Positions 21,220-58,375 of a stretch of 64,000 nucleotides of DNA are shown here, piece after piece; position 1 is the stretch's first letter; each line of letters opens with the position of its first letter. This DNA comes from Eukaryota sp. GEM-RC1. Lineage: Eukaryota. Under the pieces are notes generated by a model. That model worked only from the letters and a program-made list of their open reading frames with translations, made no database searches and was not told where the DNA came from. The position numbers were made by a program, and so were the translations under genes. Location: positions 1,364,001-1,428,000 of the forward strand of contig JAUFOQ010000010.1 in assembly GCA_040285855.1 (NCBI GenBank), in the 5' to 3' direction.

Positions 21220-22464
21220 GTCAAAAGAAGAGGATATGTTTTGTGATCAGCTTTTGGTGAAGTGAATCTGTGTCTAGGTGCATGTGATTTTCCTTCTAAC
21301 ATTTACACCATAAATCATCTTCATTTTCTGTGTCATCTTTATCATCTTTCAGCTTTCACACAGAAAATGAACTTTAATTGTGACATATTCAACACTGAAG
21401 TTCTTCGATCAGAGGAATTTGATTCTGTCTTCTACTATGGGTGGGAGAAGATGTAGTATTTCCTTCTAGTTTTCATTTATCAAATTATTTCACCTCCATT
21501 GAGCAATTGTAGCCGTTGTGTTCACCGCACCGAACAATTTCCTCAATCTAGATGAAATACGTATATATAAAGCTGAACTGATTTTTTTTCTAAAATCTAA
21601 TCGAGACTCTAAGTAATGTTCATAAAATGGAAGAAAATCAGTAATTAGAACTAGTAATTACGTTTCAACCAAGATTTTGGAACACGTGATTAATATAATT
21701 GTATCTGGATCATAAGGATAAGGATGTTGTTCAATTGAACAAGTTTTTCAAAGAGCCATGTTACTTTGAAGGATGTTCGGTCTCTCTAAAAGACTCGAGT
21801 TTGATTATTACTGAATCAAGGTATTTACTACTATGTACGTATGGCCTGTTAAAAATCTAAATGAGCTATTGTCTTGGAATAGTTTTAAATTATGAAAACT
21901 TGTTGGCAGTTGGGAGTGGTAGTAAAAATGCCAGTATACTCGGTGTGCAAAAATCTTTCCAACCGTCTAATATAAGACCAAATGCAGTTTCTCATAATTC
22001 GAACTTATAGGTGAGCAACAATAATATTAACAATTATAATCGTTCAGAATACATGAGAAACGTCTTGGATCTTATTGGTTTCAATCAGGTATTTGATCTA
22101 GGAGATTACCGAGGCTAACTATCCACAGATGTTGACTGTTTTATCAGTTTTATAGTAAGACCTTAGTGGGTTTGAACTTCACTGTTATTAAAGTAGTAGG
22201 TATGAAGTCATTGTAATTCAGAGATAGTTATTGTTGATAACAAACTTGTTAGGTTTTGACATGTGGCATTAAGTTGCCGTGTTCTGCAAATGTTTCACCT
22301 TGACACACACAGTTGTAGTTATCAATTATGCACTGATCAATAGCCACATAGAGACATCTTGGAGATGTTGAGTGGATATCACAATCTCTATTTACTTTGA
22401 AGAAGGCGTTATAAATTTGTTTGGATGAGTTCTTCATAGGAAAATACTTTTCAATAAAGAGAGA

Positions 22465-23088
22465 AAATATTGGAGTTTGGGTTTATCATAGACCCTATTT
22501 AAACGACTTCACTGAAAAAATTAAAAAAGGTTTTGCTGAAAATTGGGGAAATGTTAATCTTTCAATTATTTCATTCACTAGTCAAGTTCAAAGCTTTGAA
22601 GAACTTGAAAACTATGATGTTTTAGTTGTTGAAAGTCTTAGTTGTCCTTGCCCAGGCCAATTTTTTGATCAGTTTTTAAACCAAGGTAAGGGTTTGGTTT
22701 TGTTTAATTGTTTTCCAAGTGGTATTCAAGGAGGATTTAGTAATTCTTGTTTCAATGGAGGTGGTGATGGGGGTGGCTTCCTAATAATCAACAAACTCAA
22801 CATCACATGGTAAAAACTCTACCAAATGATCCTATTTTTTTTAATGTAAACAGTTTCTGTACTAACTGTGGTTTTCAAACTCAAAAGTCTGTTAATGGAA
22901 CTCTATTAGCTACTGTTAATTCTGGAATTCCTTTAATTGCAAAGAAAGAAGTTGGTGGAGGTAGACTTGTAGAGTTTGGGTTTTTTTGTAGTTCTAGTGA
23001 CTCTAATACAGGATGGAATTGGTCAAGTTCAACTGACGGGCACAAGTTGTTTGCTAATTCTATTATTTGGGTAAATAAAATGGATTAA
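22465..23088 (+). pseudogene. TRIM-like family copy C: C-terminal variable domain only, with no N-terminus or credible start
   Basis: Homology starts abruptly at NIGVWVYHRPY and there is a frameshift in a G run near 22770. The 3' flank resembles that of copy B. Confidence 0.85.
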
Positions 23089-33625: not shown

Positions 33626-33736
33626 TAATGTTATAGTAGAGTTGGAGTCCAGTGCAGTAAATCTCTGTATTTGTTGTGACATTGTATAGAAAACGATGAC
33701 GTGGCTTCTGGTTCACAATCCTCACTCCAAATCCAA

Positions 33737-34756
33737 ATGTCTCAAAGTTCGTGTAGCAAATGTTCACAGGGACATAATCCTCCCCAGAATCCTGTGACTA
33801 CCTGGTGTGGTCACACCTTCTGCATGTCTCATCTTCTGGACTGGTTAAACACCAACAAAATATGCCCTCTTTGTACAGAACAAGCAGAACAAGTCTCTGC
33901 TTCTGGACAGCGTCAATTTCTCTGCAAAGAGTGCGATACAGCATCAGCCACAGTCTTTTGTGATAAATGCCCTGCCGATCTCTGTGATGAATGTTCTCAA
34001 CAGATTCATGACCTGACGCTCTTCAAATCCCATTCACCTATCTCCATTGAAGAGAAGTACTCATCATCTCCCCCTAGTTGCTCCAGTACTGATCAACATA
34101 ATCCTCCCCCAACAAGTTGTTTTGCCAGATTGAGTTCCGAGCTACTTGAGTTGATCAGTCGTATTAAGACCAATGACGTGGGACGTCTCGACCTCTACAA
34201 CACCCCCATCTACCGAGACGAAGCTATTACTATTGCTTCCTGTCTGAAGGATAATACTTCGGTGACTTATATCGACTTGTTGGGGTCTACTATTGGAGAG
34301 GAAGGGGCGGTTGCGTTTGCTGATGCTTTGAAGAGTAATTCATCGGTTTCTTCCATTTATCTGAGTGGAAATTCTATTGGGGATAAAGGTACTATCGCAC
34401 TCGCTGAAGCTTTGAAGGTTAACTCTTCACTTACACTTCTTTATCTCTCTTTGAATTCAATTGGAAAAGAGGGGGCCATTGCGTTAGCTGAAGCATTAAA
34501 GGTTAATTCGTCAGTTGAAATGATTGATTTGCAGAGAAATGATATAGGTAATGATGGGGCCATTGCAATTGCTGAGGCTTTGAGAGTTAATTCATCCCTT
34601 CGAATTCTGTATTTACAGGATAATTCGATTGGTAATGAAGGGGCTATTGCGATTGCTGAGGCGTTGAAGGAAAATTCCAAAATCCGCGAGATTTATCTTC
34701 ACAAAAACCCATTTGATAGTGATTTAAGTTGTTTACAAAGTTCTAGACTTGTTTAG
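33737..34756 (+). CDS. RING, B-box and ribonuclease-inhibitor-type LRR protein
   Basis: CSKC..CGHTFC..CPLC RING, CKEC..FCDKC..C..C..H B-box, and about seven 28-aa repeats LxLxxNxIGxEGAxAxAEALKxNSS. Confidence 0.9.
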   Translation: MSQSSCSKCSQGHNPPQNPVTTWCGHTFCMSHLLDWLNTNKICPLCTEQAEQVSASGQRQFLCKECDTASATVFCDKCPADLCDECSQQIHDLTLFKSHSPISIEEKYSSSPPSCSSTDQHNPPPTSCFARLSSELLELISRIKTNDVGRLDLYNTPIYRDEAITIASCLKDNTSVTYIDLLGSTIGEEGAVAFADALKSNSSVSSIYLSGNSIGDKGTIALAEALKVNSSLTLLYLSLNSIGKEGAIALAEALKVNSSVEMIDLQRNDIGNDGAIAIAEALRVNSSLRILYLQDNSIGNEGAIAIAEALKENSKIREIYLHKNPFDSDLSCLQSSRLV

Positions 34757-35399
34757 TGAATATGTAGACTTATTTAGTGTATAGTTATGTGGTGTATCTC
34801 TTGTTTACTTAAATGTATAGCTTAGTATCCATTGTCTTGATTGTACTACACCACTTTTAAATTTACTACTCTTTTTTCTCACAAAAACAGTTTTATTATA
34901 AATGTAATAGATCAAACAACTACAATTTGAGGTCATTAAAACAACACCCGTCGCTATCAAACTTTACAACAGCTTTGTCCTCATCAAAGGAACTCACTGC
35001 TAATAAAGCATAAGCTTTAGTAACAAGAGTTTTATTTCAAAACATATTTATAGACAATGTGCCAAAACATACTACAGTACAGTACTATGGGATATCAGAT
35101 GCTCTAACAAGAATTCATTCAATAAGCTCATAGAATGTCTCGTCTGCTTCTATGTTTTGGGTCAAAACAATACTTTAAACTTTTCTATAGTTCGACCAAT
35201 TTTAACTTACATTTGTTGTGGAATCATATAAAAGACCACAAAAACAAAATCTGGAGAACATAATCTTGGGGTGACTTAAATTCTACCGTCTCACACTCAT
35301 CCATTGAGAAAACTTGTGGAAGTTCAAAATGAACTTCAAATCAACCCTGTTGAGTAACAGTTTAAATGACAATATTTGACAATAAAAATTTAAATTAAA

Positions 35400-36930: not shown

Positions 36931-37056
36931 TTAAGAAGACATGGATTGAAGAAGTTTGCCAGATTCAATTCCCCAATGGTGGGTAGCATCTAGAAAGAAC
37001 AGAGCAGATGTGGTGTATAATACAACAGAAATCTGGCTAATAATTTCTTCCTTCAA

Positions 37057-39109
37057 ATGACACATCTTGAATGTTCCGTTTGCGAAGAACTTATGGAGAA
37101 TCCCACTACTCTACCTTGTGGTCACAGCTTTTGCCGTGACAAATGTCTTGTTCAATGGTTAAAACAGAAAGAAGCGTCATCTTGTCCCGTATGTCGGGAG
37201 CCAATACCTTCCGCGCCTCTCCGTATTAACATCGCTTTACGAGAAGCTATCGAAATTGCTAAAAACTCAAAGCAAGATGCGGCCATCTGTTTTGAATGTG
37301 AAGAAGCTCCCGCCACTCTCTTCTGTGCTGACTGTAATGCCCATCACTGTGAAGAATGTTCCTCTGTTGTTCACAGGTTGAAAACGCTCCGATCCCACTC
37401 AGTTGTTCCTATCAACCAAAAACCCACCATCTCTTCCTCTAAATGCCCTCGCCACCCCTCTAAACCTCTCGAACACTTCTGTACCAAGTGTTTGGTATCC
37501 TTATGCGACTCATGTGGACTTTTAATGGGTCACGCTAAACACTGTGAGGAATTAATTCCTCTTTCACAAGCCAAAGAGGACTTTGAACTCCAAGTCAAAG
37601 AGCTCCACCTCTCTTTGTCCAACGCAACTTCAAAAGTCTCTGGAAATAAAGAAGAAGTAGAAAAGGTTGTTGCTGAAGTTCTTGTCAATACTCAGACAAT
37701 TCTTTATGATTTGATCAACAACTTGGTTAGAGAATCATCTCAAAAGATTGTTGATCTTGGTACTGGAAATAGCGTGAGTTGTGCTCTAACTTTTGACGAA
37801 GAATTGAGAGACAAAGGTAATGAGTTGATTGAAAATGCTTTAGAGGTGTTAAAAAGCTTTCAACAATCGTTCAATGAAAGCTTTGAATTCATTGAAGAAA
37901 CTGCAAACTCTTTTCATTTGAAATTGTTGTCCAAATTGGTGAAGAAAGATTTAGTTGATGTTGAAAAGTTTGATGTGTCTGCAAAATTTAAGAAGATTTT
38001 AAAAATTGCTCAAATTTCTGATGATTTTTCTATCAATTTCTCAGAATTACAAGGACTTGTGGTAATTGAAATTCCTCAAGACTTAAAACTCAAATTATTG
38101 AATAATTTCATCAATAACTCTGAAACTATTTCAATTTCTCAATTTAATTGTATTAAAGAAATTAACCCTGAATTAACCAATTTAATGGTTGAAAAACTAG
38201 AGTTTAATTCACTTACTGAAGAAGAATTTCTTGCTCTGGTTGGTACTTTTATTGAACTTTCCAATGAAGAATTGTTGTCAAAAGTAATCAATAATTTCTC
38301 TTTCGAAAGGGTTCCCGAAATTCCAGTTATTCATGGCAATCTATTATCAAGAATCAGTTTAGATAATGTTTCCAAATCAAAACAGGGAAATTTGGTTGGA
38401 AAAAGTTATTATCAGAAATCTTGTTGGAGATGAAATTCAAGTAATTGGTAGAAAATTCTTGGGTAGGGAGATTACTTTAAGAACAATCAATGTTGGAGTT
38501 TGGGTTTGGAGTGAACCATTTTTGGGTGATCTCACTGAAAAAATTAAAAAAGGTTTTGCTGAAAATTGGGGAAATGTTGATCTTTCAATTAATTCATTCA
38601 CCAGTAAAGTTCAAAGCTTTGAAGAACTTGAAAACTATGATGTTTTAGTTGTTGAAAGTTATAATTCTTGTCCTTGTCCAGGTCAATTTCTTGACCAGTT
38701 TTTAAACCAAGGTAAGGGTGTGGTTTTGTTTAATTGGTATCCAAATCGGATTCAAGGAGGATTTAGTAATTCTTGTTTCATTGGAGGTGGTGATTGTCAC
38801 TATCTTACCAATCAACGAGACCAACTTGACATGGTAAAAACTCTACCAAATGATCCTATTTTTCTTAATGTAAACAGTTTTTCTACTAACTTTGGTTTTA
38901 CAACTCAAAAGTCTGTTAATGGAACTCTATTAGCTACCGTTAATTCTGGAATTCCTTTAATTGCCAAGAAAGAAGTTGGTGGATTCAGACTTGTAGAGTT
39001 TGGGTTTCTTAGTTACTCTAGTAATGCTGGTAGTGCGGGTTGGTCAAGTTCAACTGATGGACACAAGTTGTTTGCTAATTCTATTATTTGGGTTAATAAA
39101 ATGGTTTAA
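37057..39109 (+). CDS. TRIM-like family copy D (one extra C at ~38372 relative to copy F)
   Basis: Full architecture. Nearly identical to intact copy F from ~37500 onward except GTTTCCAAATC versus GTTTCAAATC. Confidence 0.85.
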
Positions 39110-39877
39110 AATTTAAATATTTTTCAATCAGAAATTATAATTCACAGACTATTTTAATTTTCGCAATTTTTAAAGAAGAATACATCATCATTTTACGTTA
39201 AAGCGGTTTTTGAGCTGAACTTTTAGATATTGAGCAACTTGACCACGTCTACGAGTGTATCACACTCACGGAGTATGTTTAATAGCTGCGATATACTTAA
39301 TAGATTGTTACAGGTGAGGCTGTGTTAGGTGTCCATATCGGAGTACTGTTCTATTTGTTTGATGTTCCCTACAAAGTAGGACATTGTGGGAAAAGTTGAA
39401 AATTTAACCTGTATATAGTCTCTTTTAGAGCCAAGGTTTACAATAATGATTAGACAAGTAGGCTGATTATTTGAACTGACATCATCAAAATTGGGAAAAT
39501 TTGTACTGATGACATTAAATACAAATAAGAGAAGGATCATAGTTTAGAATCTATGAAATATTCACTTTCAGCAATGTTTATAATTTTTGTAACAGGACCT
39601 TTTTAATGTAATAAATTCTGTGTTATACCTTTATTTTTATTTGCATTCAGTTTCTCTGTGGAATCAACTGACAATGTTCAACGTCCCCATTCATTTATCA
39701 CATCATACTGTACGTGATGAGGTCTGATTGTCAACTTCTATTTGAATTTTAATCTACACTAACAATTTGTATCGATATTGGTCAGAATTCCTTTCTCAGG
39801 TCCGTGTAGAAGCAGTAAGAAGAGGCTGAAAAACAAATTGAGTAACACAACTACTAGTAGAAGGATTTTTTTTTAAA

Positions 39878-40515
39878 TTGCATTCTCCATGTCTTTGTGG
39901 TCGCTCAACGGCTTCAAATTTTCATCATTTAGTTAACTGCCATCAATTTATTCATTTTCGATCAATAATCCACAACAGTATCCGGGATACATGTTTGGAT
40001 ATGTTTAAGGCTAATGGTTTTCATGGAAAAATTAAACCTTCACTTTCTAATCTTTCTGATCAGCCAAAAGTTGATAGAAGTCGTGGTGATTTGATTGGTC
40101 CTTGGTTATCTTGTCAGGAAATGATCATGGATTTCACGACTGTTGATCCTTGTAATTCAAGATCAATTTCCAAAAATTTTGATGATGATTTTTCTGCTCT
40201 TGAAGTGGCTGAAAAAGGAAAAAATACAAAGTACTGTCACTTCATTAACCAATTGAATGTTGACAGGTACAATTCTTTGTGTTTCAACCTTTTGCGATGT
40301 CGATATACGGTAATATTGGACCAGCTGCACAAGATTTTTCAACTTCCTTTGGTAAATTGTGTTCTGAGTACGGTAAAGCTTTGAATCAAAATTTCTGGTT
40401 GAGTAGATTAACGTTTGCATTGCAATGCACATATAGTTTAATTCAATTTTTAGGTAAGTTGTTCGGTGATGGACAGAAGGATCATAGTTTAGATACTTTA
40501 GTTAGTGTCTGTTAG
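39878..40515 (+). pseudogene. Non-LTR retrotransposon 3' fragment (Zn knuckle plus restriction-like endonuclease)
   Basis: CLCG..HHLVNC, HNSIRD, RGDL..DFT, AEKGKNTKY and FQPFAMSIYGNIG motifs; frameshifted. Confidence 0.75.
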
Positions 40516-41262
40516 ATATTGTTTTCTGAAAAAGCCTTTATTTCACTGATTGATCATTTTTTTACAATTGATTCTGTTGATGACATTGTTGAAGATGTGA
40601 TGCTGAAAATGACACATGATAAGTATCAATGTGATATTTGTTTATAGATACATTTCATATGTTTTGTTTGTTGTTTTATTTTCGGTAACTGACTGGGTTG
40701 AAATGCTGTAATGCATCAACTACGAATTTTAAACCATGGATAGTGATGGACACAACCAAGAATGTGTGGTCAATTTGATTTGATTTAATTTGTGACAGAA
40801 GTACAACATTGGGATTGGTATACAAATAATTGAAAAGTGAGATAATTGCTTGGTATCTATTTGTGCCTTTAATTAAAGGTATTTAAATGTTTTTACACAT
40901 AACCATGCTATGAAAACACTTTTGTTTGTCCAATATTGCAATCATCAACATTTATAACTTTACTCTGAACCATTTCCTTGTTCTTCCCTTCGGTTTGTTG
41001 GAACACTCATTTTTCTTGTGATCTTCAATTCTACATCCTCCACATGGTTGATTGAACACCAAGATTGGATCTATGTGTAAGTCTCAGAATATACGATTCA
41101 ACGATTCAATTTATAGTCGTTTGATTTATTCTTTTAGAAAGTTAAAAAGTAAAACCAGAAAAGAAATGAATGAATGTTTTTGTCCATGGAGATGGGCTTT
41201 GTCAGAGAGGAAGAAAGTGAAGACGATTAATATTTTGAACTTCAAACCCTAAATACCTAGTA

Positions 41263-41321
41263 CAGTCAGGTTCCTATAATTTCAACCCTATCCGGACCTT
41301 GAAATTACAGGAACCTGACTG
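41263..41321. mobile_element. 59-bp pogo/Tc1-like mini-element
   Basis: 23-bp TIR CAGTCAGGTTCCT(A/G)TAATTTCAA with TA on both flanks; duplicated at ~53368-53426. Confidence 0.85.
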
Positions 41322-41850
41322 TACTTGATACTTCGAATTTTGAAGTATCCTTGTACTAGGTATTTAGGGTATTCAGGTAGGTATTGGTTATTGTTATTCA
41401 CAAAATCAGGTATCCACAACTATGGTTGCTATCAATCAACTTAGCGAAATCAGCATACTAGTATCAATGCACTGACTCAAATGCAATAATTTGAGTTATT
41501 AAGCCAGCCTATAAGCCTTCTGGCCAGAGGTGGATGGCTGGGATGAGAGTGGTAAACAATATGTTAACTACACTTACATTCTATTGAATGTTTTAAGGCT
41601 ATCTTCATTATCGTACTTCAATGCACCCGTTGTGTATCATATTTGAACATAAAACGATTTTGTTAGGTTGTAAAATACTTCTATTTGTGAGAAAGAACAA
41701 TTTCTTTCTACATGTACAATGTACATTCTTGTTCTACTAAACTATGAATAACACTGATGATAACGATGACAACAGTTGTCCTTTACCATCTTCTCCGCCA
41801 TACAACAAAACAACGTCTCGGGCATGGGAGTATTACTTAGAACTTAGAGA

Positions 41851-41997
41851 TCCATCCAGGCTACATCCGTACCTTGCGAAAGACTGTTCTCAGAAGCTGG
41901 AGAAGTTCTGAGAGCAAGAAGAAATCGCCTCACACCTGTGAACACTCAAGTACTTTTGTGCTTAAAGTCCTGGACTAAAGCAGGCTTTGAGTTGTAA
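41851..41997 (+). pseudogene. hAT transposase dimerisation-domain relic
   Basis: Translates SIQATSVPCERLFSEAGEVLRARRNRLTP..LCLKSW; not in the supplied ORF track. Confidence 0.85.
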
Positions 41998-43303
41998 TAT
42001 AGATCAAATAGGTGCTCATCCACCTTAATGTCTGATTTCAGTTTTTGATGAGTTTCTGAAATAAAAAATGATGTATAAGATGTGTATACACTGTAGCTCT
42101 TACCACTTGTACGTGGAATGATGTTGATATGTACTTTCGCTAGAATTTCAAGTATTCAGAGCGAATTTCCCACACAACGGAAGTATCAGACCATGTGATT
42201 CAAAGGAGATTTCATGGCTATAAAGCAAGAAGTGTTGGTCAGTGACAGTTGAATTCTTTGTCAGTGCAGTGCAATGGACAGAACAAGACCAGGACAGGAT
42301 GGAGCTCAAGTGATGAATAGAGCCGATTAGAGGTCAAAAGCAACAGAATGTTGGGAGTGTTAACTATTAGATGCGAAATATGTGTTATGATTGGCCATGA
42401 CAGAAGACCACACTGTTGTCAATGCAAAGAGTTGAAGAGCTATTGTAGATGCACTGTAAAGAAATGTTGTATATAGAGTTGTATACATAGAGTTGTATAA
42501 AGAGACTTCTGTGGAAAGAAAGAAGAAAAAGTTGTCACACGAGGAACTAATCTGACACACTGTGGTGTTTTCTTAAAGGTCTGGTCTGTAGTCTGTTGGA
42601 ACAGACTTGGTCTGTAAGTCTGAAGGTCCGACCTTTGCCCATCACTAATTGTACTACACCACTTTTATATTTAGTACTCTTCAGAAACAAGAGTTATATC
42701 TGAAAACATATTTATATATGGAATGTGCCAAAACATACTACAGTACAGTACTATGGGATATCAGATGCTCTACATCTAACAAGAGTTCATTCAATAGCTC
42801 ATTGATTGTCTCGTCTGCTCCCATGTTTTGGGTCAAAACAATACTTTAAACTTGACTATAATTCCACCAAATTTAAGTTAAAAGTGGTGGAATCATATAA
42901 AAGACCACAAAAACAATCTGGAGAACACAATCTTGGGGTGACTTAAATTCTACCGTCTCTTACTCATCCATTGAAAACTTGTGGAAGTTCAAATTAACTT
43001 GTTGAGTATAAAGTATAAATGACAATATTTTACAGTAAAACCCGCAGATTCAGTTATACACTTTTCCATTTGATAAGCAAATACGGACTTTCAGGTGTTG
43101 TTAAATACAATGTATAATTAATGAGTCTAAGTACATATCGATGTTACTTACAGTATTAAAAGGGTTTGCATTAAAGAAGTTTGCCAGATCTAATTCCCCA
43201 ATGGTGGGTATCATCTAGATTTAACAGAGCAGATGTGGTCTATAAACATGTATACTCATGGTTCATATATAGTAGTGGAAATCTGGCTATAATTTCGTCC
43301 TTC

Positions 43304-45377
43304 CATCTTGAATGCTCCGTATGCGAAGAATTAATGGAGAATCCCACCACGCTTCCGTGTGGTCACAGTTTTGCCGTGACAAATGTCTTGTACAATGGTT
43401 AAAACAGAAAGAAGCGGCATCTTGTCCCGTTTGTCGGGAGCCAATACCTTCCGCGCCTCTCCGTGTAAACATCGCTCTGCGAGAAGCTATTGAAATTGCT
43501 AAAAACTCAAAGCAAGATGTGGTCATCTGTTTTGAATGTGAAGAAGCTCCCGCCACTCTTTTCTGTGCTGACTGTGATGCTCATCACTGTGAAGAATGCT
43601 CATCTCTTATTCATCGACCAAAGACCTTACGATCCCACTCAGTTGTTCCTATCAACCAAAAACCCACAATCTCTTCCTTCAAATGCCCTCGGCACCCCTC
43701 TAAACCTCTCGAACACTTCTGCACTAAGTGTTTGGTATCTATATGTGACTCATGTGGACTTTTAATGGGTCACGCTAAACACTGTGAGGAATTAATTCCT
43801 CTTTCACAAGCCAAAGAGGACTTTGAACTCCAAGTCAAAGAGCTCCACCTCTCTTTATCCAACGCAACTTCTAAAGTCTCTGGAAATAAAGAAGAAGTAG
43901 AAAAGGTTGTTGCTGAAGTTCTCGTCAATACTCAAACAATTCTTTATGACTTGATCAACAACTTGGTTAGAGAATCATCTCAAAAGATTGTTGATCTTAC
44001 TACTGGAAATACCGTTAGTGGTGCTCTAACTTTTGACAAAGAGTTGAGAGAAAAAGGTAATGAATTTATTGAAAATGCTTTAGAGGTGTTAAAGAACTTT
44101 AAACAATCATTCAATGAAAGCTTTGAATTCATTGAAGAAAATGCAAAGTCCTTTCATTTGAAGTTGTTGTCCAAATTGGTGAAGAAAGATTTAGTTGATG
44201 TTGATATGTTTGATGTGTATGCAAAATTTGACCTTGAAATGTTTGATGCGTCTTCAAAATCTAAGGAAATTTTAAAAATTGCTCAAATTTCTGATGATTT
44301 CTCTATAAATTTCTCAGAACTACAAGAACTAGTGGAAATTGAAATTCCTCATGAATTGAAACTCAAATTATTGAATAATTTCATCAATAACTCTCAAACT
44401 ATTTCAATTTCTCAATTCAATTGGATTAAAGAACTTAACCCCGAATTAACCAATTTAATGTTTGAAAAACTAGATCTTAATTCACTAACTGAAGAAGAAT
44501 TTCTTGCTCTAGTTGGTACTTTTATTGAACATTGCAATGTAGAATTGTTGTCAAAAGTAATCAATAATTTCTCATTCGAAAGTGTTCCCGAAATTCCAGT
44601 TATTCCTGGTAATTTATTATCAAAAATTAATTTAGATATGCTTTCAAATCAAAACAGGGAAATTTGGTTGGAAAAAGTTATTCTTAAAAATCTTTGTGGA
44701 GATAAAATTCAAGTAATTGGTGGAAAATTCTTGGGTAGGGAGATTTCTTTAAGAATTAATGTTGGAGTTTGGGTTCATCATAGACCCTATTTAAATGATC
44801 TCACTGACAAAATTAAAAAAGGATTTGCTGAAAATTGGGGAAATGTTAATCTTTCAATTAATTCATTCACTAGCCATGTTCAAAGCTTTGAAGAACTTGA
44901 AAACTATGATGTTTTAGTTGTTGAAAGTAGTGGTTGGCCTTGTCCAGGTCAATTTCTTGACCTGTTTTTAAACCAAGGTAAGGGTTTAGTTTTGTTTTGT
45001 CGTAATCCAAGTAATATTCAAGGAGGATTTAGTAATTCTTGTTTCAATGGAGGTGATGATGGTAGTTATCTTACCAATCAACAAACCCAACATAACATGG
45101 TAACAACTCTACCAAATGATCCTATTTTTCTTAATGTAAACAGATTTTCAACTAACTATGGTTATAAAACTCAAAAGTCTGTTAATGGAACTCTATTAGC
45201 TACTGTTAATTCTGGAATTCCTTTAATTGCAAAGAAAGAAGTTGGTGGAGGTAGACTTGTAGAGTTTGGGTTTTTTGTAGTTCTAGTGACTCTAATCCTG
45301 GTGCTTGTTGGCCAACTTCAACTGATGGACACAAGTTGTTTGCTAATTCTATTATTTGGGTAAATAAAATGGTTTAA
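43304..45377 (+). pseudogene. TRIM-like family copy E (start codon deleted, frameshifts)
   Basis: Lacks AAATGTCT, including the ATG, relative to copy G. It has a 1-bp loss in CACAGTTTTGCC and another in the T run at ~45271. Confidence 0.82.
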
Positions 45378-46122
45378 AATTTAAATATATGTATATCATT
45401 AATTCTCGTTCGCAGTCTATTCAAACTTTCTTGAGGTTTTTCGAGAAGACATCATCCTTCTACATTAAAGCAGTTTTTGAGCTGGACGTTCAGATATTGA
45501 GCAACTTGATCACGTCTACGAGTATCACACTCACGGTGTATGTCTAATAGCTGCGATATACTTAATAGATTGTTACAGGAGAGGCTTTGTTAGGTGTCCA
45601 TATCACAGTACTGTTCTATTTGCTCTTTGTTCCCTACACGATAGGACATTATGGGGAAAGTTGTAAGTTTAACCTGTAAATAGTAATAGTCTCTTTTAAA
45701 ACAAAGGTTTAGAATAATGATTAGTCTAGTTGGCTGATTATTTGAACTGACATCATCAAAATTTTGAAAATTTGTACTGATGACATTAAATACCAATAAG
45801 ATAAAAAAAATTTGTTGTGTGGTTTTCTCCGCACATAAATCCGCTTTTGAATACAATTCATAAAACATCAGAACAGATAATGTATGTTGAACATCACACA
45901 GTTTTTAAACAGCTCAATGATAGTTGACCTAATAAATTTGGGCATCAATCGAAACAATCAATTAACAACTGTAAATCCATCTCACCAATACTACCAAAAT
46001 AGACTGAGTATATTTAAACAAACTGTCAAAAACAACAACATTCAAAACTAAATAAAAAACCTAAAATATCACATTATTTATCAAAAACGATCCAAAAATT
46101 GAGCAACAAACAAACAAAACAT

Positions 46123-48081: not shown

Positions 48082-49159
48082 CTGAAGAGAGTTTCAGCAA
48101 TCAAAAAGACAATTCTGTTCCCAATTTAAGTGAATCAACTCTGTTCTGCGTGACCAATTCTGCCTCAACACGAAGATATCGATGGGATTCAGCGCCTCTC
48201 AACAATTAATGTATTCGAATAATTGATGCGTGTTCTATTGCTACTACAGCATCCTTTTGTCGATGAGTAGTAGAACTATAAGTCTTTTATGTACGACAAT
48301 CTCTCAGAGAACTACCATTCTACATCAATAAACTGTTATGTTGTCATCTTATGTACAATTTCTATGAACACTTCAACATTTGTGTTTGTATTTCAAACTA
48401 TGCGTATCAACATGAAGGCCTCACCTGTTCTGAAAAATGCGTTAACTCATACAGACTAGATTTACCAAAGTGTCTGACTACGTCAATATATAATAATCCT
48501 ATTTTTAACTCAGTTAAATTAACTGCTAGTGTCAATTTCATAATAGATTTTATACTTCATGTGACCTTTTTGTTACATGGTTCTCCATTCTCTATAGTTT
48601 CTATGTATAAATTCTGTTCCTTGAGTTTTCCCTACCAGTTTCTGATTCGAAAAGATTGTAGAATATAATCACCTACAGTGCTGCTAATAACCAGACGCGT
48701 TGTTGGGAAAATGTAAATTCTTTGGGAAGTTATGTTAAGCTAATGAGTACACCAGGTTTTACTGAATTTGTATCGTTAAATTGCGCTACATCACTGAGAG
48801 TAATCACAGTATAAGTTTATGTGAAATTCACGATTTCTGTTGATACTATAACCTTGTGGTTCTACTAAATTAGATCAAATTCGAACAAAAGATGAACTAT
48901 TCTCACTCCTAACTTCAATTTCTGTTAAATTTCTGTGAATTTCTGAACAGACAAGTTTTGAGACAAACATTTAATTTTGTGATGTTTGGACAGGACGTGA
49001 GATTTGTCTAAAAAGAATGGCACAGTGTGATCTTTAGATAAATGGGAAAATCATGTTCTATATTTACCGCAACAAATAATGACTAATTAGATATATGAAA
49101 AACAGCCTTCCCACAAAATAAAATGTATATCAAAATTTTTTGAAAATTACTTGACATTG

Positions 49160-51211
49160 ATGTCACATCTTAAATGTTCCGTATGCGAAGAACTAATGGA
49201 GACTCCCATCACGCTTCCATGTGGCCACAGCTTTTGCCGTGACAAATGTCTTGCTCAATGGTTAAAACAGAAAGAAGCGGCTTCTTGTCCCGTATGTCGA
49301 GAACCAATACCTTCCTCGCCTCTCCGTGTAAACATCGCTTTGAGAGAAGCTATCGAAATTGCTAAAAACTCAAAGCAAGATGCGGTCATCTGTTTTGAAT
49401 GTGAAGAAGCTCCCGCCACTCTCTTCTGTGCTGACTGTGACGCCCATCACTGTGAAGAATGTTCCTCTGTGGTTCACAGGTTGAAAACGTTCCGATCCCA
49501 CTCAGTTGTCCCTATCAACCAAAAACCCAACATCTCTTCTTGCAAATGCCCCCGCCACCCCTCTAAACCTCTCGAACACTTCTGTACCAAGTGTTTGGTA
49601 TCCATATGCGACTCATGTGGACTTTTAATGGGTCACGCTAAACACTGTGAGGAATTAATTCCTCTTTCACAAGCCAAAGAGGACTTTGAACTCCAAGTCA
49701 AAGAGCTCCACCTCTCTTTGTCCAACGCAACTTCAAAAGTCTCTGGAAATAAAGAAGAAGTAGAAAAGGTTGTTGCTGAAGTTCTTGTCAATACTCAGAC
49801 AATTCTTTATGATTTGATCAACAACTTGGTTAGAGAATCATCTCAAAAGATTGTTGATCTTGGTACTGGAAATAGCGTGAGTTGTGCTCTAACTTTTGAC
49901 GAAGAATTGAGAGACAAAGGTAATGAGTTTATTGAAAATGCTTTAGAGGTGTTAAAAAGCTTTCAACAATCGTTCAATGAAAGCTTTGAATTCATTGAAG
50001 AAACTGCAAACTCTTTTCATTTGAAATTGTTGTCCAAATTGGTGAAGAAAGATTTAGTTGATGTTGAAAAGTTTGATGTGTCTGCAAAATTTAAGAAGAT
50101 TTTAAAAATTGCTCAAATTTCTGATGATTTTTCTATCAATTTCTCAGAATTACAAGGACTTGTGGTAATTGAAATTCCTCAAGACTTAAAACTCAAATTA
50201 TTGAATAATTTCATCAATAACTCTGAAACTATTTCAATTTCTCAATTTAATTGTATTAAAGAAATTAACCCTGAATTAACCAATTTAATGGTTGAAAAAC
50301 TAGAGTTTAATTCACTTACTGAAGAAGAATTTCTTGCTCTGGTTGGTACTTTTATTGAACTTTCCAATGAAGAATTGTTGTCAAAAGTAATCAATAATTT
50401 CTCTTTCGAAAGGGTTCCCGAAATTCCAGTTATTCATGGCAATCTATTATCAAGAATCAGTTTAGATAATGTTTCAAATCAAAACAGGGAAATTTGGTTG
50501 GAAAAAGTTATTATCAGAAATCTTGTTGGAGATGAAATTCAAGTAATTGGTAGAAAATTCTTGGGTAGGGAGATTACTTTAAGAACAATCAATGTTGGAG
50601 TTTGGGTTTGGAGTGAACCATTTTTGGGTGATCTCACTGAAAAAATTAAAAAAGGTTTTGCTGAAAATTGGGGAAATGTTGATCTTTCAATTAATTCATT
50701 CACCAGTAAAGTTCAAAGCTTTGAAGAACTTGAAAACTATGATGTTTTAGTTGTTGAAAGTTATAATTCTTGTCCTTGTCCAGGTCAATTTCTTGACCAG
50801 TTTTTAAACCAAGGTAAGGGTGTGGTTTTGTTTAATTGGTATCCAAATCGGATTCAAGGAGGATTTAGTAATTCTTGTTTCATTGGAGGTGGTGATTGTC
50901 ACTATCTTACCAATCAACGAGACCAACTTGACATGGTAAAAACTCTACCAAATGATCCTATTTTTCTTAATGTAAACAGTTTTTCTACTAACTTTGGTTT
51001 TACAACTCAAAAGTCTGTTAATGGAACTCTATTAGCTACCGTTAATTCTGGAATTCCTTTAATTGCCAAGAAAGAAGTTGGTGGATTTAGACTTGTAGAG
51101 TTTGGGTTTCTTAGTTACTCTAGTAATGCTGGTAGTGCGGGTTGGTCAAGTTCAACTGATGGACACAAGTTGTTTGCTAATTCTATTATTTGGGTTAATA
51201 AAATGGTTTAA
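49160..51211 (+). CDS. TRIM-like family copy F (intact)
   Basis: Full RING, B-box1, B-box2, coiled coil and variable domain in an uninterrupted ORF. Confidence 0.92.
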   Translation: MSHLKCSVCEELMETPITLPCGHSFCRDKCLAQWLKQKEAASCPVCREPIPSSPLRVNIALREAIEIAKNSKQDAVICFECEEAPATLFCADCDAHHCEECSSVVHRLKTFRSHSVVPINQKPNISSCKCPRHPSKPLEHFCTKCLVSICDSCGLLMGHAKHCEELIPLSQAKEDFELQVKELHLSLSNATSKVSGNKEEVEKVVAEVLVNTQTILYDLINNLVRESSQKIVDLGTGNSVSCALTFDEELRDKGNEFIENALEVLKSFQQSFNESFEFIEETANSFHLKLLSKLVKKDLVDVEKFDVSAKFKKILKIAQISDDFSINFSELQGLVVIEIPQDLKLKLLNNFINNSETISISQFNCIKEINPELTNLMVEKLEFNSLTEEEFLALVGTFIELSNEELLSKVINNFSFERVPEIPVIHGNLLSRISLDNVSNQNREIWLEKVIIRNLVGDEIQVIGRKFLGREITLRTINVGVWVWSEPFLGDLTEKIKKGFAENWGNVDLSINSFTSKVQSFEELENYDVLVVESYNSCPCPGQFLDQFLNQGKGVVLFNWYPNRIQGGFSNSCFIGGGDCHYLTNQRDQLDMVKTLPNDPIFLNVNSFSTNFGFTTQKSVNGTLLATVNSGIPLIAKKEVGGFRLVEFGFLSYSSNAGSAGWSSSTDGHKLFANSIIWVNKMV

Positions 51212-54200
51212 AATTTAAATATTTTTCAATCAGAAATTATAATTCACAGACTATTTTAATTTTCGCAATTTTTAAAGAAGAATACATCATCATTTTACGT
51301 TAAAGCGGTTTTTGAGCTGAACTTTTAGATATTGAGCAACTTGACCACGTCTACGAGTGTATCACACTCACGGAGTATGTTTAATAGCTGCGATATACTT
51401 AATAGATTGTTACAGGTGAGGCTGTGTTAGGTGTCCATATCGGAGTACTGTTCTATTTGTTTGATGTTCCCTACAAAGTAGGACATTGTGGGAAAAGTTG
51501 AAAATTTAACCTGTATATAGTCTCTTTTAGAGCCAAGGTTTACAATAATGATTAGACAAGTAGGCTGATTATTTGAACTGACATCATCAAAATTGGGAAA
51601 ATTTGTACTGATGACATTAAATACAAATAAGAGAAGGATCATAGTTTAGAATCTATGAAATATTCACTTTCAGCAATGTTTATAATTTTTGTAACAGGAC
51701 CTTTTTAATGTAATAAATTCTGTGTTATACCTTTATTTTTATTTGCATTCAGTTTCTCTGTGGAATCAACTGACAATGTTCAACGTCCCCATTCATTTAT
51801 CACATCATACTGTACGTGATGAGGTCTGATTGTCAACTTCTATTTGAATTTTAATCTACACTAACAATTTGTATCGATATTGGTCAGAATTCCTTTCTCA
51901 GGTCCGTGTAGAAGCAGTAAGAAGAGGCTGAAAAACAAATTGAGTAACACAACTACTAGTAGAAGGATTTTTTTTTAAATTGCATTCTCCATGTCTTTGT
52001 GGTCGCTCAACGGCTTCAAATTTTCATCATTTAGTTAACTGCCATCAATTTATTCATTTTCGATCAATAATCCACAACAGTATCCGGGATACATGTTTGG
52101 ATATGTTTAAGGCTAATGGTTTTCATGGAAAAATTAAACCTTCACTTTCTAATCTTTCTGATCAGCCAAAAGTTGATAGAAGTCGTGGTGATTTGATTGG
52201 TCCTTGGTTATCTTGTCAGGAAATGATCATGGATTTCACGACTGTTGATCCTTGTAATTCAAGATCAATTTCCAAAAATTTTGATGATGATTTTTCTGCT
52301 CTTGAAGTGGCTGAAAAAGGAAAAAATACAAAGTACTGTCACTTCATTAACCAATTGAATGTTGACAGGTACAATTCTTTGTGTTTCAACCTTTTGCGAT
52401 GTCGATATACGGTAATATTGGACCAGCTGCACAAGATTTTTCAACTTCCTTTGGTAAATTGTGTTCTGAGTACGGTAAAGCTTTGAATCAAAATTTCTGG
52501 TTGAGTAGATTAACGTTTGCATTGCAATGCACATATAGTTTAATTCAATTTTTAGGTAAGTTGTTCGGTGATGGACAGAAGGATCATAGTTTAGATACTT
52601 TAGTTAGTGTCTGTTAGATATTGTTTTCTGAAAAAGCCTTTATTTCACTGATTGATCATTTTTTTACAATTGATTCTGTTGATGACATTGTTGAAGATGT
52701 GATGCTGAAAATGACACATGATAAGTATCAATGTGATATTTGTTTATAGATACATTTCATATGTTTTGTTTGTTGTTTTATTTTCGGTAACTGACTGGGT
52801 TGAAATGCTGTAATGCATCAACTACGAATTTTAAACCATGGATAGTGATGGACACAACCAAGAATGTGTGGTCAATTTGATTTGATTTAATTTGTGACAG
52901 AAGTACAACATTGGGATTGGTATACAAATAATTGAAAAGTGAGATAATTGCTTGGTATCTATTTGTGCCTTTAATTAAAGGTATTTAAATGTTTTTTTAC
53001 ACATAACCATGCTATGAAAACACTTTTGTTTGTCCAATATTGCAATCATCAACATTTATAACTTTACTCTGAACCATTTCCTTGTTCTTCCCTTCGGTTT
53101 GTTGGAACACTCATTTTTCTTGTGATCTTCAATTCTACATCCTCCACATGGTTGATTGAACACCAAGATTGGATCTATGTGTAAGTCTCAGAATATACGA
53201 TTCAACGATTCAATTTATAGTCGTTTGATTTATTCTTTTAGAAAGTTAAAAAGTAAAACCAGAAAAAGAAATGAATGAATGTTTTTGTCCATGGAGATGG
53301 GCTTTGTCAGAGAGGAAGAAAGTGAAGACGATTAATATTTTGAACTTCAAACCCTAAATACCTAGTACAGTCAGGTTCCTATAATTTCAACCCTATCCGG
53401 ACCTTGAAATTACAGGAACCTGACTGTACTAGATACTCGAATTTTGAAGTATCCTTGTACTAGGTATTTAGGGTATTCAGGTAGGTATTGGTTATTGTTA
53501 TTCACAAAATCAGGTATCCACAACTATGGTTGCTATCAATCAACTTAGCGAAATCAGCATACTAGTATCAATGCACTGACTCAAATGCAATAATTTGAGT
53601 TATTAAGCCAGCCTATAAGCCTTCTGGCCAGAGGTGGATGGCTGGGATGAGAGTGGTAAACAATATGTTAACTACACTTACATTCTATTGAATGTTTTAA
53701 GGCTATCTTCATTATCGTACTTCAATGCACCCGTTGTGTATCATATTTGAACATAAAACGATTTTGTTAGGTTGTAAAATACTTCTATTTGTGAGAAAGA
53801 ACAATTTCTTTCTACATGTACAATGTACATTCTTGTTCTACTAAACTATGAATAACACTGATGATAACGATGACAACAGTTGTCCTTTACCATCTTCTCC
53901 GCCATACAACAAAACAACGTCTCGGGCATGGGAGTATTACTTAGAACTTAGAGATCCATCCAGGCTACATCCGTACCTTGCGAAAGACTGTTCTCAGAAG
54001 CTGGAGAAGTTCTGAGAGCAAGAAGAAATCGCCTCACACCTGTGAACACTCAAGTACTTTTGTGCTTAAAGTCCTGGACTAAAGCAGGCTTTGAGTTGTA
54101 ATATAGATCAAATAGGTGCTCATCCACCTTAATGTCTGATTTCAGTTTTTGATGAGTTTCTGAAATAAAAAATGATGTATAAGATGTGTATACACTGTAG

Positions 54201-57095
54201 CTCTTACCACTTGTACGTGGAATGATGTTGATATGTACTTTCGCTAGAATTTCAAGTATTCAGAGCGAATTTCCCACACAACGGAAGTATCAGACCATGT
54301 GATTCAAAGGAGATTTCATGGCTATAAAGCAAGAAGTGTTGGTCAGTGACAGTTGAATTCTTTGTCAGTGCAGTGCAATGGACAGAACAAGACCAGGACA
54401 GGATGGAGCTCAAGTGATGAATAGAGCCGATTAGAGGTCAAAAGCAACAGAATGTTGGGAGTGTTAACTATTAGATGCGAAATATGTGTTATGATTGGCC
54501 ATGACAGAAGACCACACTGTTGTCAATGCAAAGAGTTGAAGAGCTATTGTAGATGCACTGTAAAGAAATGTTGTATATAGAGTTGTATACATAGAGTTGT
54601 ATAAAGAGACTTCTGTGGAAAGAAAGAAGAAAAAGTTGTCACACGAGGAACTAATCTGACACACTGTGGTCTAGGTGTTTTCTTAAAGGTCTGGTCTGTA
54701 GTCTGTTGGAACAGACTTGGTCTGTAAGTCTGAAGGTCCGACCTTTGCCCATCACTAATTGTACTACACCACTTTTATATTTAGTACTCTTCAGAAACAA
54801 GAGTTATATCTGAAAACATATTTATATATGGAATGTGCCAAAACATACTACAGTACAGTACTATGGGATATCAGATGCTCTACATCTAACAAGAGTTCAT
54901 TCAATAGCTCATTGATTGTCTCGTCTGCTCCCATGTTTTGGGTCAAAACAATACTTTAAACTTGACTATAATTCCACCAAATTTAAGTTAAAAGTGGTGG
55001 AATCATATAAAAGACCACAAAAACAATCTGGAGAACACAATCTTGGGGTGACTTAAATTCTACCGTCTCTTACTCATCCATTGAAAACTTGTGGAAGTTC
55101 AAATTAACTTGTTGAGTATAAAGTATAAATGACAATATTTTACAGTAAAACCCGCAGATTCAGTTATACACTTTTCCAGTTGATAAGCAAATACGGACTT
55201 TCAGGTGTTGTTAAATACAATGTATAATTAATGAGTCTAAGTACATATCGATGTTACTTACAGTATTAAAAGGGTTTGCATTAAAGAAGTTTGCCAGATC
55301 TAATTCCCCAATGGTGGGTATCATCTAGATTTAACAGAGCAGATGTGGTCTATAAACATGTATACTCATGGTTCATATATAGTAGTGGAAATCTGGCTAT
55401 AATTTCGTCCTTCAAATGTCTCATCTTGAATGCTCCGTATGCGAAGAATTAATGGAGAATCCCACCACGCTTCCGTGTGGTCACAGTTTTGCCGTGACAA
55501 ATGTCTTGTGCAATGGTTAAAACAGAAAGAAGCGGCATCTTGTCCCGTTTGTCGGGAGCCAATACCTTCCGCGCCTCTCCGTGTAAACATCGCTCTGCGA
55601 GAAGCTATTGAAATTGCTAAAAACTCAAAGCAAGATGTGGTCATCTGTTTTGAATGTGAAGAAGCTCCCGCCACTCTTTTCTGTGCTGACTGTGATGCTC
55701 ATCACTGTGAAGAATGCTCATCTCTTATTCATCGACCAAAGACCTTACGATCCCACTCAGTTGTTCCTATCAACCAAAAACCCACAATCTCTTCCTTCAA
55801 ATGCCCTCGGCACCCCTCTAAACCTCTCGAACACTTCTGCACTAAGTGTTTGGTATTTATATGTGACTCATGTGGACTTTTAATGGGTCACGCTAAACAC
55901 TGTGAGGAATTAATTCCTCTTTCACAAGCCAAAGAAGACTTTGAACTCCAAGTCAAAGAGCCCCACCTCTCTTTGTCCAACGCAACTTCGAAAGTCTCTG
56001 GAAATAAAGAAGAAGTAGAAAAAGTTGTTGCTGAAGTTCTCGTCAATACTCAAACAATTCTTTATGACTTGATCAACAACTTAGTTAGAGAATCATCTCA
56101 AAAGATTGTTCATCTTGGTACTGGAAATACAGTTAGTGGTGCTCTAACTTTTGACAAAGAGTTGAGAGAAAAAGGTAATGAATTTATTGAAAATGCTTTA
56201 GAGGTGTTAAAGAACTTTAAACAATCATTCAATGAAAGCTTAGAATTCATTGAAGAAAATGCAAAGTCCTTTCATTTGAAGTTGTTGTCCAAATTGGTGA
56301 AGAAAGATTTAGTTGATGTTGATATGTTTGATGTGTATGCAAAATTTGACCTTGAAATGTTTGATGCGTCTTCAAAATCTAAGGAAATTTTAAAAATTGC
56401 TCAAATTTCTGATGATTTCTCTATAAATTTCTCAGAACTACAAGAACTAGTGGAAATTGAAATTCCTCATGAATTGAAACTCAAATTATTGAATAATTTC
56501 ATCAATAACTCTCAAACTATTTCAATTTCTCAATTCAATTGGATTAAAGAACTTAACCCCGAATTAACCAATTTAATGTTTGAAAAACTAGATCTTAATT
56601 CACTAACTGAAGAAGAATTTCTTGCTCTAGTTGGTACTTTTATTGAACATTGCAATGTAGAATTGTTGTCAAAAGTAATCAATAATTTCTCATTCGAAAG
56701 TGTTCCCGAAATTCCAGTTATTCCTGGTAATTTATTATCAAAAATTAATTTAGATATGCTTTCAAATCAAAACAGGGAAATTTGGTTGGAAAAAGTTATT
56801 CTTAAAAATCTTTGTGGAGATGAAATTCAAGTAATTGGTAGAAAATTCTTGGGTAGGGAGATTTCTTTAAGAATTAATGTTGGAGTTTGGGTTCATCATA
56901 GACCCTATTTAAATGATCTCACTGACAAAATTAAAAAAGGATTTGCTGAAAATTGGGGAAATGTTAATCTTTCAATTAATTCATTCACTAGCCATGTTCA
57001 AAGCTTTGAAGAACTTGAAAACTATGATGTTTTAGTTGTTGAAAGTAGTGGTTGGCCTTGTCCAGGTCAATTTCTTGACCTGTTTTTAAACCAAG
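49605..57095 (+). repeat. Segmental duplication unit 2
   Basis: Copy of 37502-44976, including the LINE relic (51980-52617), the mini-element and the hAT relic (53955-54101). Confidence 0.93.
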
Positions 57096-57504
57096 ACAAG
57101 GGTTTTGTTTTGTTTAATTGTTTTCCAAGTGGTATTCAAGGAGGATTTAGTAATTCTTGTTTCCAATGGAGGTGGTGATGGGGGTGGCTTCCTTATAATC
57201 AACAAACTCAACATCACATGGTAAAAACTTTACCAAATGATCCTATTTTTTTTTTAATGTAAACAGTTTCTGTACTAACTGTGGTTTTCAAACTCAAAAG
57301 TCTGTTCATGGAACTCTATTAGCTACTGTTAATTCTGGAATTCCTTTAATTGCAAAGAAAGAAGTTGGTGGAGGTAGACTTGTAGAGTTTGGGTTTTTTT
57401 GTAGTTCTAGTGACTCTAATGATGGTAGATATAATTGGTCAAGTTCAACTGATGGACATAGATTATTTGCTAATTCTATTATTTGGGTAAGTAAATCACT
57501 TTAA
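55416..57504 (+). pseudogene. TRIM-like family copy G (mosaic, with frameshifts)
   Basis: ATG at 55416. Shares the CACAGTTTTGCC frameshift with copy E and has further indels at ~57163-57255. E-like up to 57095, then C-like. Confidence 0.8.
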
Positions 57505-58375
57505 AAGTTAAATGCATGTGTCTTAGGTTTGACGATCACTGTGTGTCTATCAAACAGATATCTGAGTTACACGGCCTTTTTTTAAGAGTAGTCTTAGGAG
57601 CTGAAATAATTGAAACAACATGTTCAGGCTTAGATTTTTACAAAATCTTATCAAAAAACCGTCATTACTAAATTTGATTCGATCCTTTCTGGTTCGCATA
57701 AAGGAAACATACAACTTTATATCTTTGTTACATTAAGTACTATACATAACAATCACTGTCATTTGTTTGCCCTGTTGTGACGTATACAGTTTGATTTGGT
57801 AGAAAAAGACTTGCTTTTTTGACTTTAATTGTATGGGAACCAGCCGAGCCAACCGATTGCTACAAATAGAAGTATTTTCAGCTGCAAGCTAACTGGCTCA
57901 AATATTTCATTTTTAAATGTTTAACCCATGATTCGGTTGTTAAACAGAATTGATCAAAATCGAATGATGAATTAATAAAAGCAAGGTATCATGTACTAGT
58001 ACAGCTCTTATTATTCTGTTATTGTCCGAATGATGATAAAGGTTTCCAGCCCAAAGTTGGAAGCTTAGAATTGAATTTAATATTATTATGTATCTAATAC
58101 ATGTAGTTGTCTTTTGGTTGTTCTTGGCTGGCACTGTAAACTATTTTATGGCTATTCCTGAACACGCTACAATCATAACCCGTACAGTACTTTGTTACTT
58201 CAAAACTGGAAACGTTACTTTGTTTTGTTACCCCAAGTAGTACAACAAATGTAGTAACAGAAAATTTAGTACAACGTGGAAACATCAATTAGAGATCATG
58301 ATGTAACAAAACGCTTAAAAAACAGAATCAAAAAACAGGGTACAAGGAAAAAAAGTTCAAATAAATTTAAAATAT

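Follow-up and report, generated by a model that had tools for sequence, protein, structure and literature searches.

A RING/B-box gene copy in a free-living metamonad is likely a three-source mosaic and, as assembled, a decaying pseudogene

In a stretch of 64,000 nucleotides (nt) from Eukaryota sp. GEM-RC1 (assembly GCA_040285855.1, contig JAUFOQ010000010.1, positions 1,364,001 to 1,428,000 of the forward strand), called the window below, there is an array of eight related genes. One of them, copy G, is likely a mosaic of three sources. At least two rounds of non-allelic homologous recombination would have made it, and its sequence as assembled is likely that of a decaying pseudogene. How did such a copy arise? 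Ordinary ectopic recombination among the members of the tandem array, by non-allelic gene conversion or unequal exchange, is in our judgement the probable answer. The original prediction for this DNA had already described G as a mosaic; it had further proposed that invariant framework blocks act as anchors for an exchange that reassorts variable loops combinatorially. The mosaic itself is borne out by the results given here, while the reassortment of loops is not.

Results

The array and the three-part identity pattern of copy G

The window reads like a chromosome segment of eukaryotic type, with a guanine-cytosine content of 30-42%, long and mostly uninterrupted open reading frames (ORFs) and transposase remnants (DDE_3, hAT). 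Family members were located by tblastn with the intact copy B as query; where other limits are preferred, the tblastn limits are given in brackets. Paralogs beyond the window were covered as annotated proteins only, and their locus tags suggest at least 10 further paralogs or fragments, most of them on the same contig. The eight copies are the following.

13893-14750, plus strand: copy A, a short form with one B-box and the C-terminal domain
16410-18533, plus strand: copy B, intact, 707 amino acids (aa)
22466-23087 (tblastn 22460-23082), plus strand: copy C, truncated at the 5' end to the C-terminal domain only; closest relative of the middle tract of G
37054-39109, plus strand: copy D
43301-45386 (tblastn 43301-45374), plus strand: copy E, RING region frame-shifted as in G
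49118-51211, plus strand: copy F, intact, 686 aa
55398-57513 (tblastn to 57495), plus strand: copy G, with B-box, presumed coiled coil and ThuA-like domain, RING region frame-shifted
63999-63508, minus strand: copy H, cut off by the window end

The C-terminal regions of the eight copies were aligned with MAFFT and their 224 variable columns were tabulated. Six patches of this region are hypervariable among the copies and are separated by a nearly invariant framework. Along this alignment G changes its closest relative. From 56869 to 57095, which covers patches 1 and 2, it has 0 substitutions in 227 nt relative to E and 23 relative to C, in agreement with the claim that G equals E through these patches. 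The stretches that follow are listed below.

57082-57095, plus strand: interval of breakpoint 1, between the last E-specific site (57081) and the first non-E site (57096); it is the invariant framework block GTTTTTAAACCAAG, a 14-nt block found in all eight copies
57096-57106, plus strand: three sites unlike both E and C, with GAC in common with A and TTTT in common with H
57107-57420, plus strand: C-like tract, patches 3-5 with the framework between them; C and G are joined with 100% bootstrap
57421-57445, plus strand: patch 6, with the allele NDGRYNW found in G only
57446-57513, plus strand: diverged tail with the A-like CATAGATT, a private block before the stop codon and a 7-nt TTTAAAA insertion of the D/E/F type

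Over the 314 nt of the C-like tract, G differs from C by 3 substitutions and 2 indel events, all of them private to G, and from E by 29 substitutions. The tract carries the framework variants of C as well as its patches 3, 4 and 5, and 29 consecutive informative sites are C-like. Note that C and E differ only up to 57289 and are identical in 57290-57420 apart from a 1-nt run-length difference in E; within this last part C, E and G are identical except for that difference and one base private to G. Therefore the C-like tract is proven only for 57107-57289, and its right end may lie anywhere in 57290-57420. On both sides the tract is flanked by sites unlike E and C which share rare states of A (57096-97; CATAGATT at 57459-66), and the short stretch 57096-57106 is possibly a leftover of the original recipient gene. 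From 57421 to 57513 no copy in the window is more than 83% identical to G, while the other copies are 82-96% identical among themselves, and family homology in G stops near 57513. When a donor for this tail was sought with the last 83 codons of G among annotated proteins of at least 147 aa (shorter proteins were not searched with this query), the best match was 80% identical.

A string search of the window gives the same picture. The switch near 57096 to the patch 3-5 alleles of C was correctly predicted: the three patch strings and CAACATCAC are restricted to C and G. The patch-6 string is found only in G, as had been said of it. For the A-like framework variants, GGACATAGATT is confined to A and G, and CAAGACAAG occurs in A, in G and at one unrelated site, 47431.

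The tract of about 7.5 kb shared by two gene pairs

The E-like part of G does not stand alone. In a self-BLAST of the window, 37057-45386 matches 49160-57513 at 98.5%, and within this match the following parts can be distinguished.

37450-44977, plus strand: tract copy 1, with the 3' part of D, intergenic DNA and the 5' part of E
49553-57095, plus strand: tract copy 2, with the 3' part of F, intergenic DNA and the 5' part of G
49160-49552, plus strand: the 5' end belonging to F only, a left shoulder with 32 substitutions relative to D in 390 nt followed by near-identity; the mirror junction of the same event

The core of the tract, which includes about 4 kb of intergenic DNA, is about 99.7% identical, with 20 substitutions and 6 indel events, including indels of 6 nt and 8 nt, in 37500-44960. 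Counted per 200 nt, the differences are about 120 outside the genes, 21 and 11 in the 5' end of D/F and 0-2 over most of the core, and they rise again from 57096, where the right shoulder inside E/G starts. Three bins of the core have 6-9 differences per 200 nt; one of them holds the 6-nt indel and one the 8-nt indel. Beyond 37057/49160 and 45386/57513 the sequences are unrelated, the flanks of F and G are unique, and a unique segment of 3.8 kb with an ITFG1-like gene lies between the two units. Both ends of the tract fall inside the coding sequence of paralogs. Thus F, with its own 5' end and a D-like rest, and G, with an E-like 5' part and its own 3' end, are mirror mosaics. Since the 5' 1.7 kb of G belongs to this tract, the switch from E to non-E in G is the right end of a two-gene exchange.

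In the part shared by E and G, 23 differing columns were listed (15 substitution sites and one 8-nt indel), and 7 states are private to G, which fits drift in a dead copy. A cluster of E/G differences at 55857-56242 was considered as a further conversion tract and was instead read as point mutation, with 7 of its 12 sites private to G and the rest private to E or of mixed affinity.

Two further repeats touch these units. An ORF of 168 aa without a Pfam match is identical at 39878-40384 and 51980-52486, in the duplicated intergenic DNA of D/E and F/G. A repeat of about 320 nt (self-BLAST, 87.6% identical) is found at 35015-35336, 42679-43000 and 54789-55110; its distance to the gene downstream is about 1.7 kb for D and about 0.3 kb for E and for G.

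Tests for recombination

With E and C as parents of G, the maximum chi-square is 34.3 over 70 informative columns, a value reached in 0 of 10,000 permutations. The columns come in the order of 23 E-like, 29 C-like and then mixed ones; of the last ten 'E-like' columns, seven belong to a single indel. The same test with H as second parent was discarded, because H is without the 5' third of the domain and gap columns were scored as differences. Maximum-likelihood trees (200 bootstraps) were built for three segments, without F, which nearly duplicates D, and in segment 1 also without H, which has no sequence there. The trees are discordant: E and G are joined at 100% in segment 1 (56869-57090), C and G are joined at 100% in segment 2 (57091-57428), and in segment 3 (57429-57513) G is unplaced on a long branch of 0.23. 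The check proposed with the original prediction, recombination tests and per-patch trees, thus comes out in favor of the mosaic when made by segment, and the pairwise homoplasy index (PHI) agrees with the maximum chi-square. With G included, PHI gives p = 0.001 (ABCDEGH, 51 informative sites), 0.0005 (ABCDGH) and 0.001 (ABCDEG). When G is taken out it is not significant, with p = 0.065 (ABCDEH), 0.38 (ABCDE) and 0.74 (BCDEH).

In a perfect-run test of the GENECONV kind, the longest run between E and G covers 65 of 187 polymorphic sites, and 0 of 5,000 permutations reach it. Four other pairs, A-E (0.0084), B-D (0.0076), C-D (0.0084) and D-G (0.0062), fail the correction for 15 pairs. The divergence between C and G is 3/314 in 57107-57420, versus 23/222 in segment 1 (Fisher p = 5e-7) and 17/87 in the tail (p = 9e-10). 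Could rate heterogeneity without any recombination give this pattern? We reject this explanation, because in adjoining segments the identity of G is first 100% with E and then 99% with C. As in ectopic recombination, adjoining segments have different closest relatives with supported breakpoints between them, and the tract ends fall where donor and recipient have sequence in common (breakpoints 1 and 2, and the left end of the 7.5 kb tract in the coding sequence of D/F).

Coding state of G, C and their relatives

G carries at least four frame breaks, one in the RING region and three further downstream. Its ORF stops at 57178, and tblastn finds the pieces of G in different frames. The three downstream breaks are as follows.

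57163, plus strand: +1 break by an extra C, which yields CFQWRW and then a stop
57186-57187, plus strand: +2 break inside patch 4, common to C and G, which are here 2 nt longer than the other copies
57246-57247, plus strand: +2 break in a T-run, private to G; it could be a homopolymer error of long reads

Copy C has no upstream part of the gene, and its translation runs to …GGGDGGGFLIINKLNITW and then a stop. As assembled, therefore, the 'patch 4 allele' of C and G is a frame break and not an in-frame variant of the loop. The protein P0019 ends with GGGDGGGFLIINNMTW and the protein P0015, from another locus, ends with CFQCRW, so the same lesions recur at other loci. An out-of-frame RING region (MLRMRR.NGES…) is common to E (43301-43372), G (55398-55490) and the annotated 680-aa protein P0002 from elsewhere on the contig. 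This suggests that E, G and P0002 may form a RING-less sub-lineage, functional or dead, that was duplicated several times.

The family and its C-terminal domain

At the curated cut-offs of Pfam, RING families and zf-B_box (two stretches) are matched in B and F. The middle region of about 350 residues has no Pfam match, and a coiled coil is presumed there. The last ~210 residues of B and F have no Pfam match at E ≤ 0.01. For the C-terminal domain there is no Pfam match to the known classes of TRIM proteins (PRY/SPRY, NHL, COS-FN3 and others), and the only match is a weak one to DUF7408 (E = 0.005, below the cut-off). The domain of B scores 17.3 bits against DUF7408 (PF24157), for which the cut-off is 27, so it is not assigned to the ThuA (PF06283) / DUF7408 family; relatives score 24-30 bits. 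An exhaustive profile-free search finds 221 proteins at E ≤ 0.001. Twelve of these were run against Pfam: 2 have RING, 1 a protein kinase domain, 1 BTB, 1 a P-domain, 1 immunoglobulin (Ig)-like domains together with DUF7408 and 1 a sub-threshold ThuA, and 5 have no match. The relatives of the family in the databases are hypothetical proteins of Eukaryota sp. GEM-RC1 with the prefix GEMRC1_, and relatives at 46-50% identity come from Eukaryota sp. TZLM1-RC.

What fold, then, does the domain have? An AlphaFold2 model of the domain of B, made with an alignment of 42 rows, has a mean predicted local distance difference test score (pLDDT) of 94.1 and a predicted template modelling score (pTM) of 0.92. 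The top matches of this model in the Protein Data Bank by Foldseek are 2gk3 and 1t0b, both ThuA-like, and 3rht, which is like a class-I glutamine amidotransferase (GATase1), with E = 2e-8 to 1e-7 and template modelling (TM) scores of 0.62-0.69. The domain is thus predicted to have a ThuA / class-I glutamine-amidotransferase-like fold. The six variable patches correspond to residues 13-20, 63-67, 88-94, 103-119, 137-143 and 178-193 of the model, and by DSSP they are predicted to sit in loops or short hairpins after strands. A full-text literature search for the combination of ThuA, B-box and RING matched only an unrelated subject, as judged by title and the start of the abstract.

For the pairs B-D, B-E and D-E, the rate of non-synonymous substitution (dN) is at least as high as that of synonymous substitution (dS) in the last two full 60-codon windows, B aa 531-650; the windows stop short of the final 57 codons. 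For example, B-E in a C-terminal window has dN 0.122 versus dS 0.031, while dN/dS in N-terminal 60-codon windows is about 0.06-0.5. A comparison of dN/dS between patches and framework was set aside; a high dN in the patches is circular, because the patches were defined by variability, and their dS is probably inflated by poor codon alignment. The unsupervised 60-codon windows were used instead. Along the gene, dS among B, D and E ranges between 0.03 and 0.58 (60-codon windows, positions 16560-18530 versus D and E), with the peak at B aa 111-170. This unevenness could come from older partial conversions or from uneven constraint.

Family homology in A, where the B-box is fused straight to the domain, and in C begins at the same point just before INVGVWV (14114 and 22466). 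The C-terminal domain behaves as a module that was relocated more than once.

Discussion

If ordinary ectopic recombination made G, the steps may be as follows. Before the exchange, a gene or gene pair between unique flanks would have stood at 49.1-57.5 kb as the recipient; if this was a single gene, its 5' end would be kept in F and its 3' end in G. A C-like donor would first have overwritten the region of patches 3-5, and a later break would have been repaired from the D-E region by means of gene-body homology on both sides. The order is suggested by the divergence of the tracts, since the C-like tract has 1% substitutions versus 0.27% in the big tract, so the C-like event would be older and separate. 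The conserved framework may serve as the homology for recombination because it is the most similar DNA. To this extent the proposed role of framework blocks as anchors agrees with the data, as the junction of E and C lies in GTTTTTAAACCAAG; nothing, however, points to the loops as the unit of exchange. The kind of event is well known, and its novelty is only in the host family.

Could the mosaic have been made by the assembly and not by the cell? Long reads of near-identical paralogs may have been mis-joined, or short reads of other copies may have 'corrected' G. According to the available part of PMC11316075, the assembly was made from Nanopore R9.4 reads at 119x and corrected with Illumina reads at 116x. 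A 7.5 kb repeat of 99.7% identity and paralogs of 85-93% identity are places where multi-mapping reads mislead polishers, and several of the differences between the units are homopolymer indels of 1-2 nt. But the units are also set apart by the 20 substitutions and the 6-nt and 8-nt indels, their outer flanks are different and unique, and the unique 3.8 kb with its gene lies between them. The junction falls in only ~24 nt of identity between E and C, far too short for an assembler overlap. Moreover, the C-like tract has three private substitutions and is followed by a tail that matches nothing, so the C-like end of G is no copy-paste of another assembled locus. Together with the long-read coverage reported in that source, this makes an artefact of assembly or polishing unlikely. 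A different history needs one event less in G: 57096-57513 would be the unaltered end of an old sister of C, and the tail of C would later have been converted by a copy of the B/H type. The tail and 3' flank of C are indeed of the A/B/H type (94.9% identical to H), the terminal branches in segment 2 are 0.002 for C versus 0.028 for G, and A-like variants lie on both sides of the C-like tract of G. This single-event history still needs a breakpoint in 57290-57420 somewhere in the history of C and G, so that the conclusion for the family would be unchanged. In the tail, the branch of G is long relative to all other copies, as one would sooner expect of an older remnant than of a sister of C, and we consider this history quite unlikely.

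A further explanation is a dedicated or selected system of diversification, in which frequent short conversions anchored in the framework would reshuffle the six loops, fragments like C would be silent donor cassettes, and new specificities would result. The patches do coincide with loops or short hairpins in the ThuA-like fold, which is predicted with confidence, dN is not below dS in the C-terminal domain, breakpoint 1 is inside an invariant block, and C is a fragment with the domain only. Besides, the patch 4 allele GDGGGFLIIN is found at three loci (C, G and P0019) with different alleles of patches 1-3, and dS is uneven along the genes. On the other side, the moved tracts (about 7.5 kb, and 180-340 nt) are contiguous and include framework, and intergenic DNA lies within the larger one. 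As recipient, G is not intact, and what C and G share as an 'allele' breaks the frame; PHI finds nothing significant in the three sets of copies once G is removed, and the E-G pair is the only one that survives correction for multiple tests. On these grounds combinatorial reassortment of loops is very unlikely to have produced G. Two further signs of exchange that had been read from the loops do not help it. The similarity of HHRPY in E/G and YHRPY in C fits plain relatedness of C and E, for the segment 1 tree puts C beside E and G with 62% bootstrap. NCGFQ, shared by H and C, also occurs in P0002 and may be an ancestral allele.

Some points weigh against ordinary ectopic recombination, and they should be noticed. 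The mosaic is read from the assembled sequence alone, with the assembly taken on trust, and donors nearer than C may lie outside the window. The perfect run between C and G has 24 sites (p = 0.011) and is lost after the correction for 15 pairs, as the run is cut short by mutations that G alone carries. Other copies may also have exchanged sequence at an older date, since dS is uneven (0.03-0.58) and four other pairs have uncorrected p below 0.01, so low power may explain why G alone is found to be mosaic. Sequencing error may account for part of the pseudogene state, because some breaks are in homopolymers (G5, T10), the assembly is from R9.4 reads and polishing is unreliable in multi-copy DNA. 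For example, one extra G would restore the frame of patch 4 in C and G.

How does the array compare with known systems? In vertebrates, tandem TRIM clusters (TRIM5/TRIM22/TRIM6/TRIM34, the reservoir on primate chromosome 11, and the finTRIMs of fish) evolve by non-allelic gene conversion and segmental duplication, according to the parts of PMC2151084, PMC3228819 and PMC3137616 that were available. The present family resembles them in having RING and B-box, both by Pfam, with a presumed coiled coil; in its tandem arrays with pseudogenes, where exchange between paralogs gives mosaic copies; and in a C-terminal domain of the recognition type whose loops vary and whose dN is not below dS. It is unlike them in that this domain is predicted to be ThuA/GATase1-like and not PRY/SPRY (B30.2), and in that the host is a free-living anaerobic protist, where the family is not known to have an antiviral or any other function. 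In the available part of PMC11316075, the Skoliomonas sp. GEMRC genome is that of a free-living metamonad.

Cassette-based variation of antigens or receptors proceeds by segmental conversion from silent pseudogenes, as in the variant surface glycoproteins (VSG) of trypanosomes, vlsE of Borrelia and the Ig V pseudogenes of chicken. Here too, truncated or frame-broken copies stand beside intact ones, conserved framework flanks variable segments, and at least one short tract (180-314 nt) is common to the fragment C and to G. Unlike in those systems, the tracts are not confined to variable segments, as framework is included and one tract takes in two genes with 4 kb of DNA between them; the one demonstrated mosaic, G, is itself broken; and the array, known from its assembled sequence, gives no sign of an expression site or of directionality into an intact gene. 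Arrays can also grow when sister chromatids exchange unequally, or when synthesis-dependent strand annealing uses a paralog as a misaligned template. The new near-identical unit that ends inside homologous genes, with the mirror chimeras F and G, is as expected from such growth. The units are, however, split by 3.8 kb of unique DNA with the ITFG1-like gene and do not abut, so a simple unequal crossover is insufficient, and a locus that already existed and received the tract by two-ended conversion or gap repair is a better match.

What does the mosaic mean? Taken alone, G shows the textbook signs of recombination in a tandem family, and it mainly documents how the array grows and decays. It also marks a fast-evolving, lineage-specific family in a free-living metamonad that combines RING, B-box, a presumed coiled coil and a putative ThuA-like domain, and this family is more interesting than the mosaic itself. 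Should the domain serve in recognition, the family would amount to an analogue of the antiviral TRIM proteins of animals that is independent and does without SPRY. One may go further and imagine an innate-recognition repertoire of the protist, made of TRIM-like E3 ligases with a hypervariable ThuA-fold binding module, where broken copies (C, G and short fragments on the contig) would be a reservoir of loops for framework-anchored conversion into intact genes, and G and C would be snapshots of this traffic. Such a scenario is highly unlikely in our estimate. In any case, the exchange of tracts of kilobase and sub-kilobase size must be known before analyses of loop selection or phylogeny in this family can be trusted.

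Other features of the window

Between the clusters of paralogs there is another gene of tripartite-like form at 33701-34756, in which RING and B-box are followed by leucine-rich repeats of the ribonuclease-inhibitor type (LRR_6, E = 6e-24). The left end of the window is rich in repeats, with transposase-like ORFs at 1-747, 2114-3274 and 6150-7814 (DDE_3; hAT dimerisation domain). On the minus strand at 818-2026, an ORF holds a 27-aa unit four times in tandem (…NGFQSPTEQHHPTLRSSRSEVDPFLSS…), which is seen as an 81-nt direct repeat in the self-BLAST.

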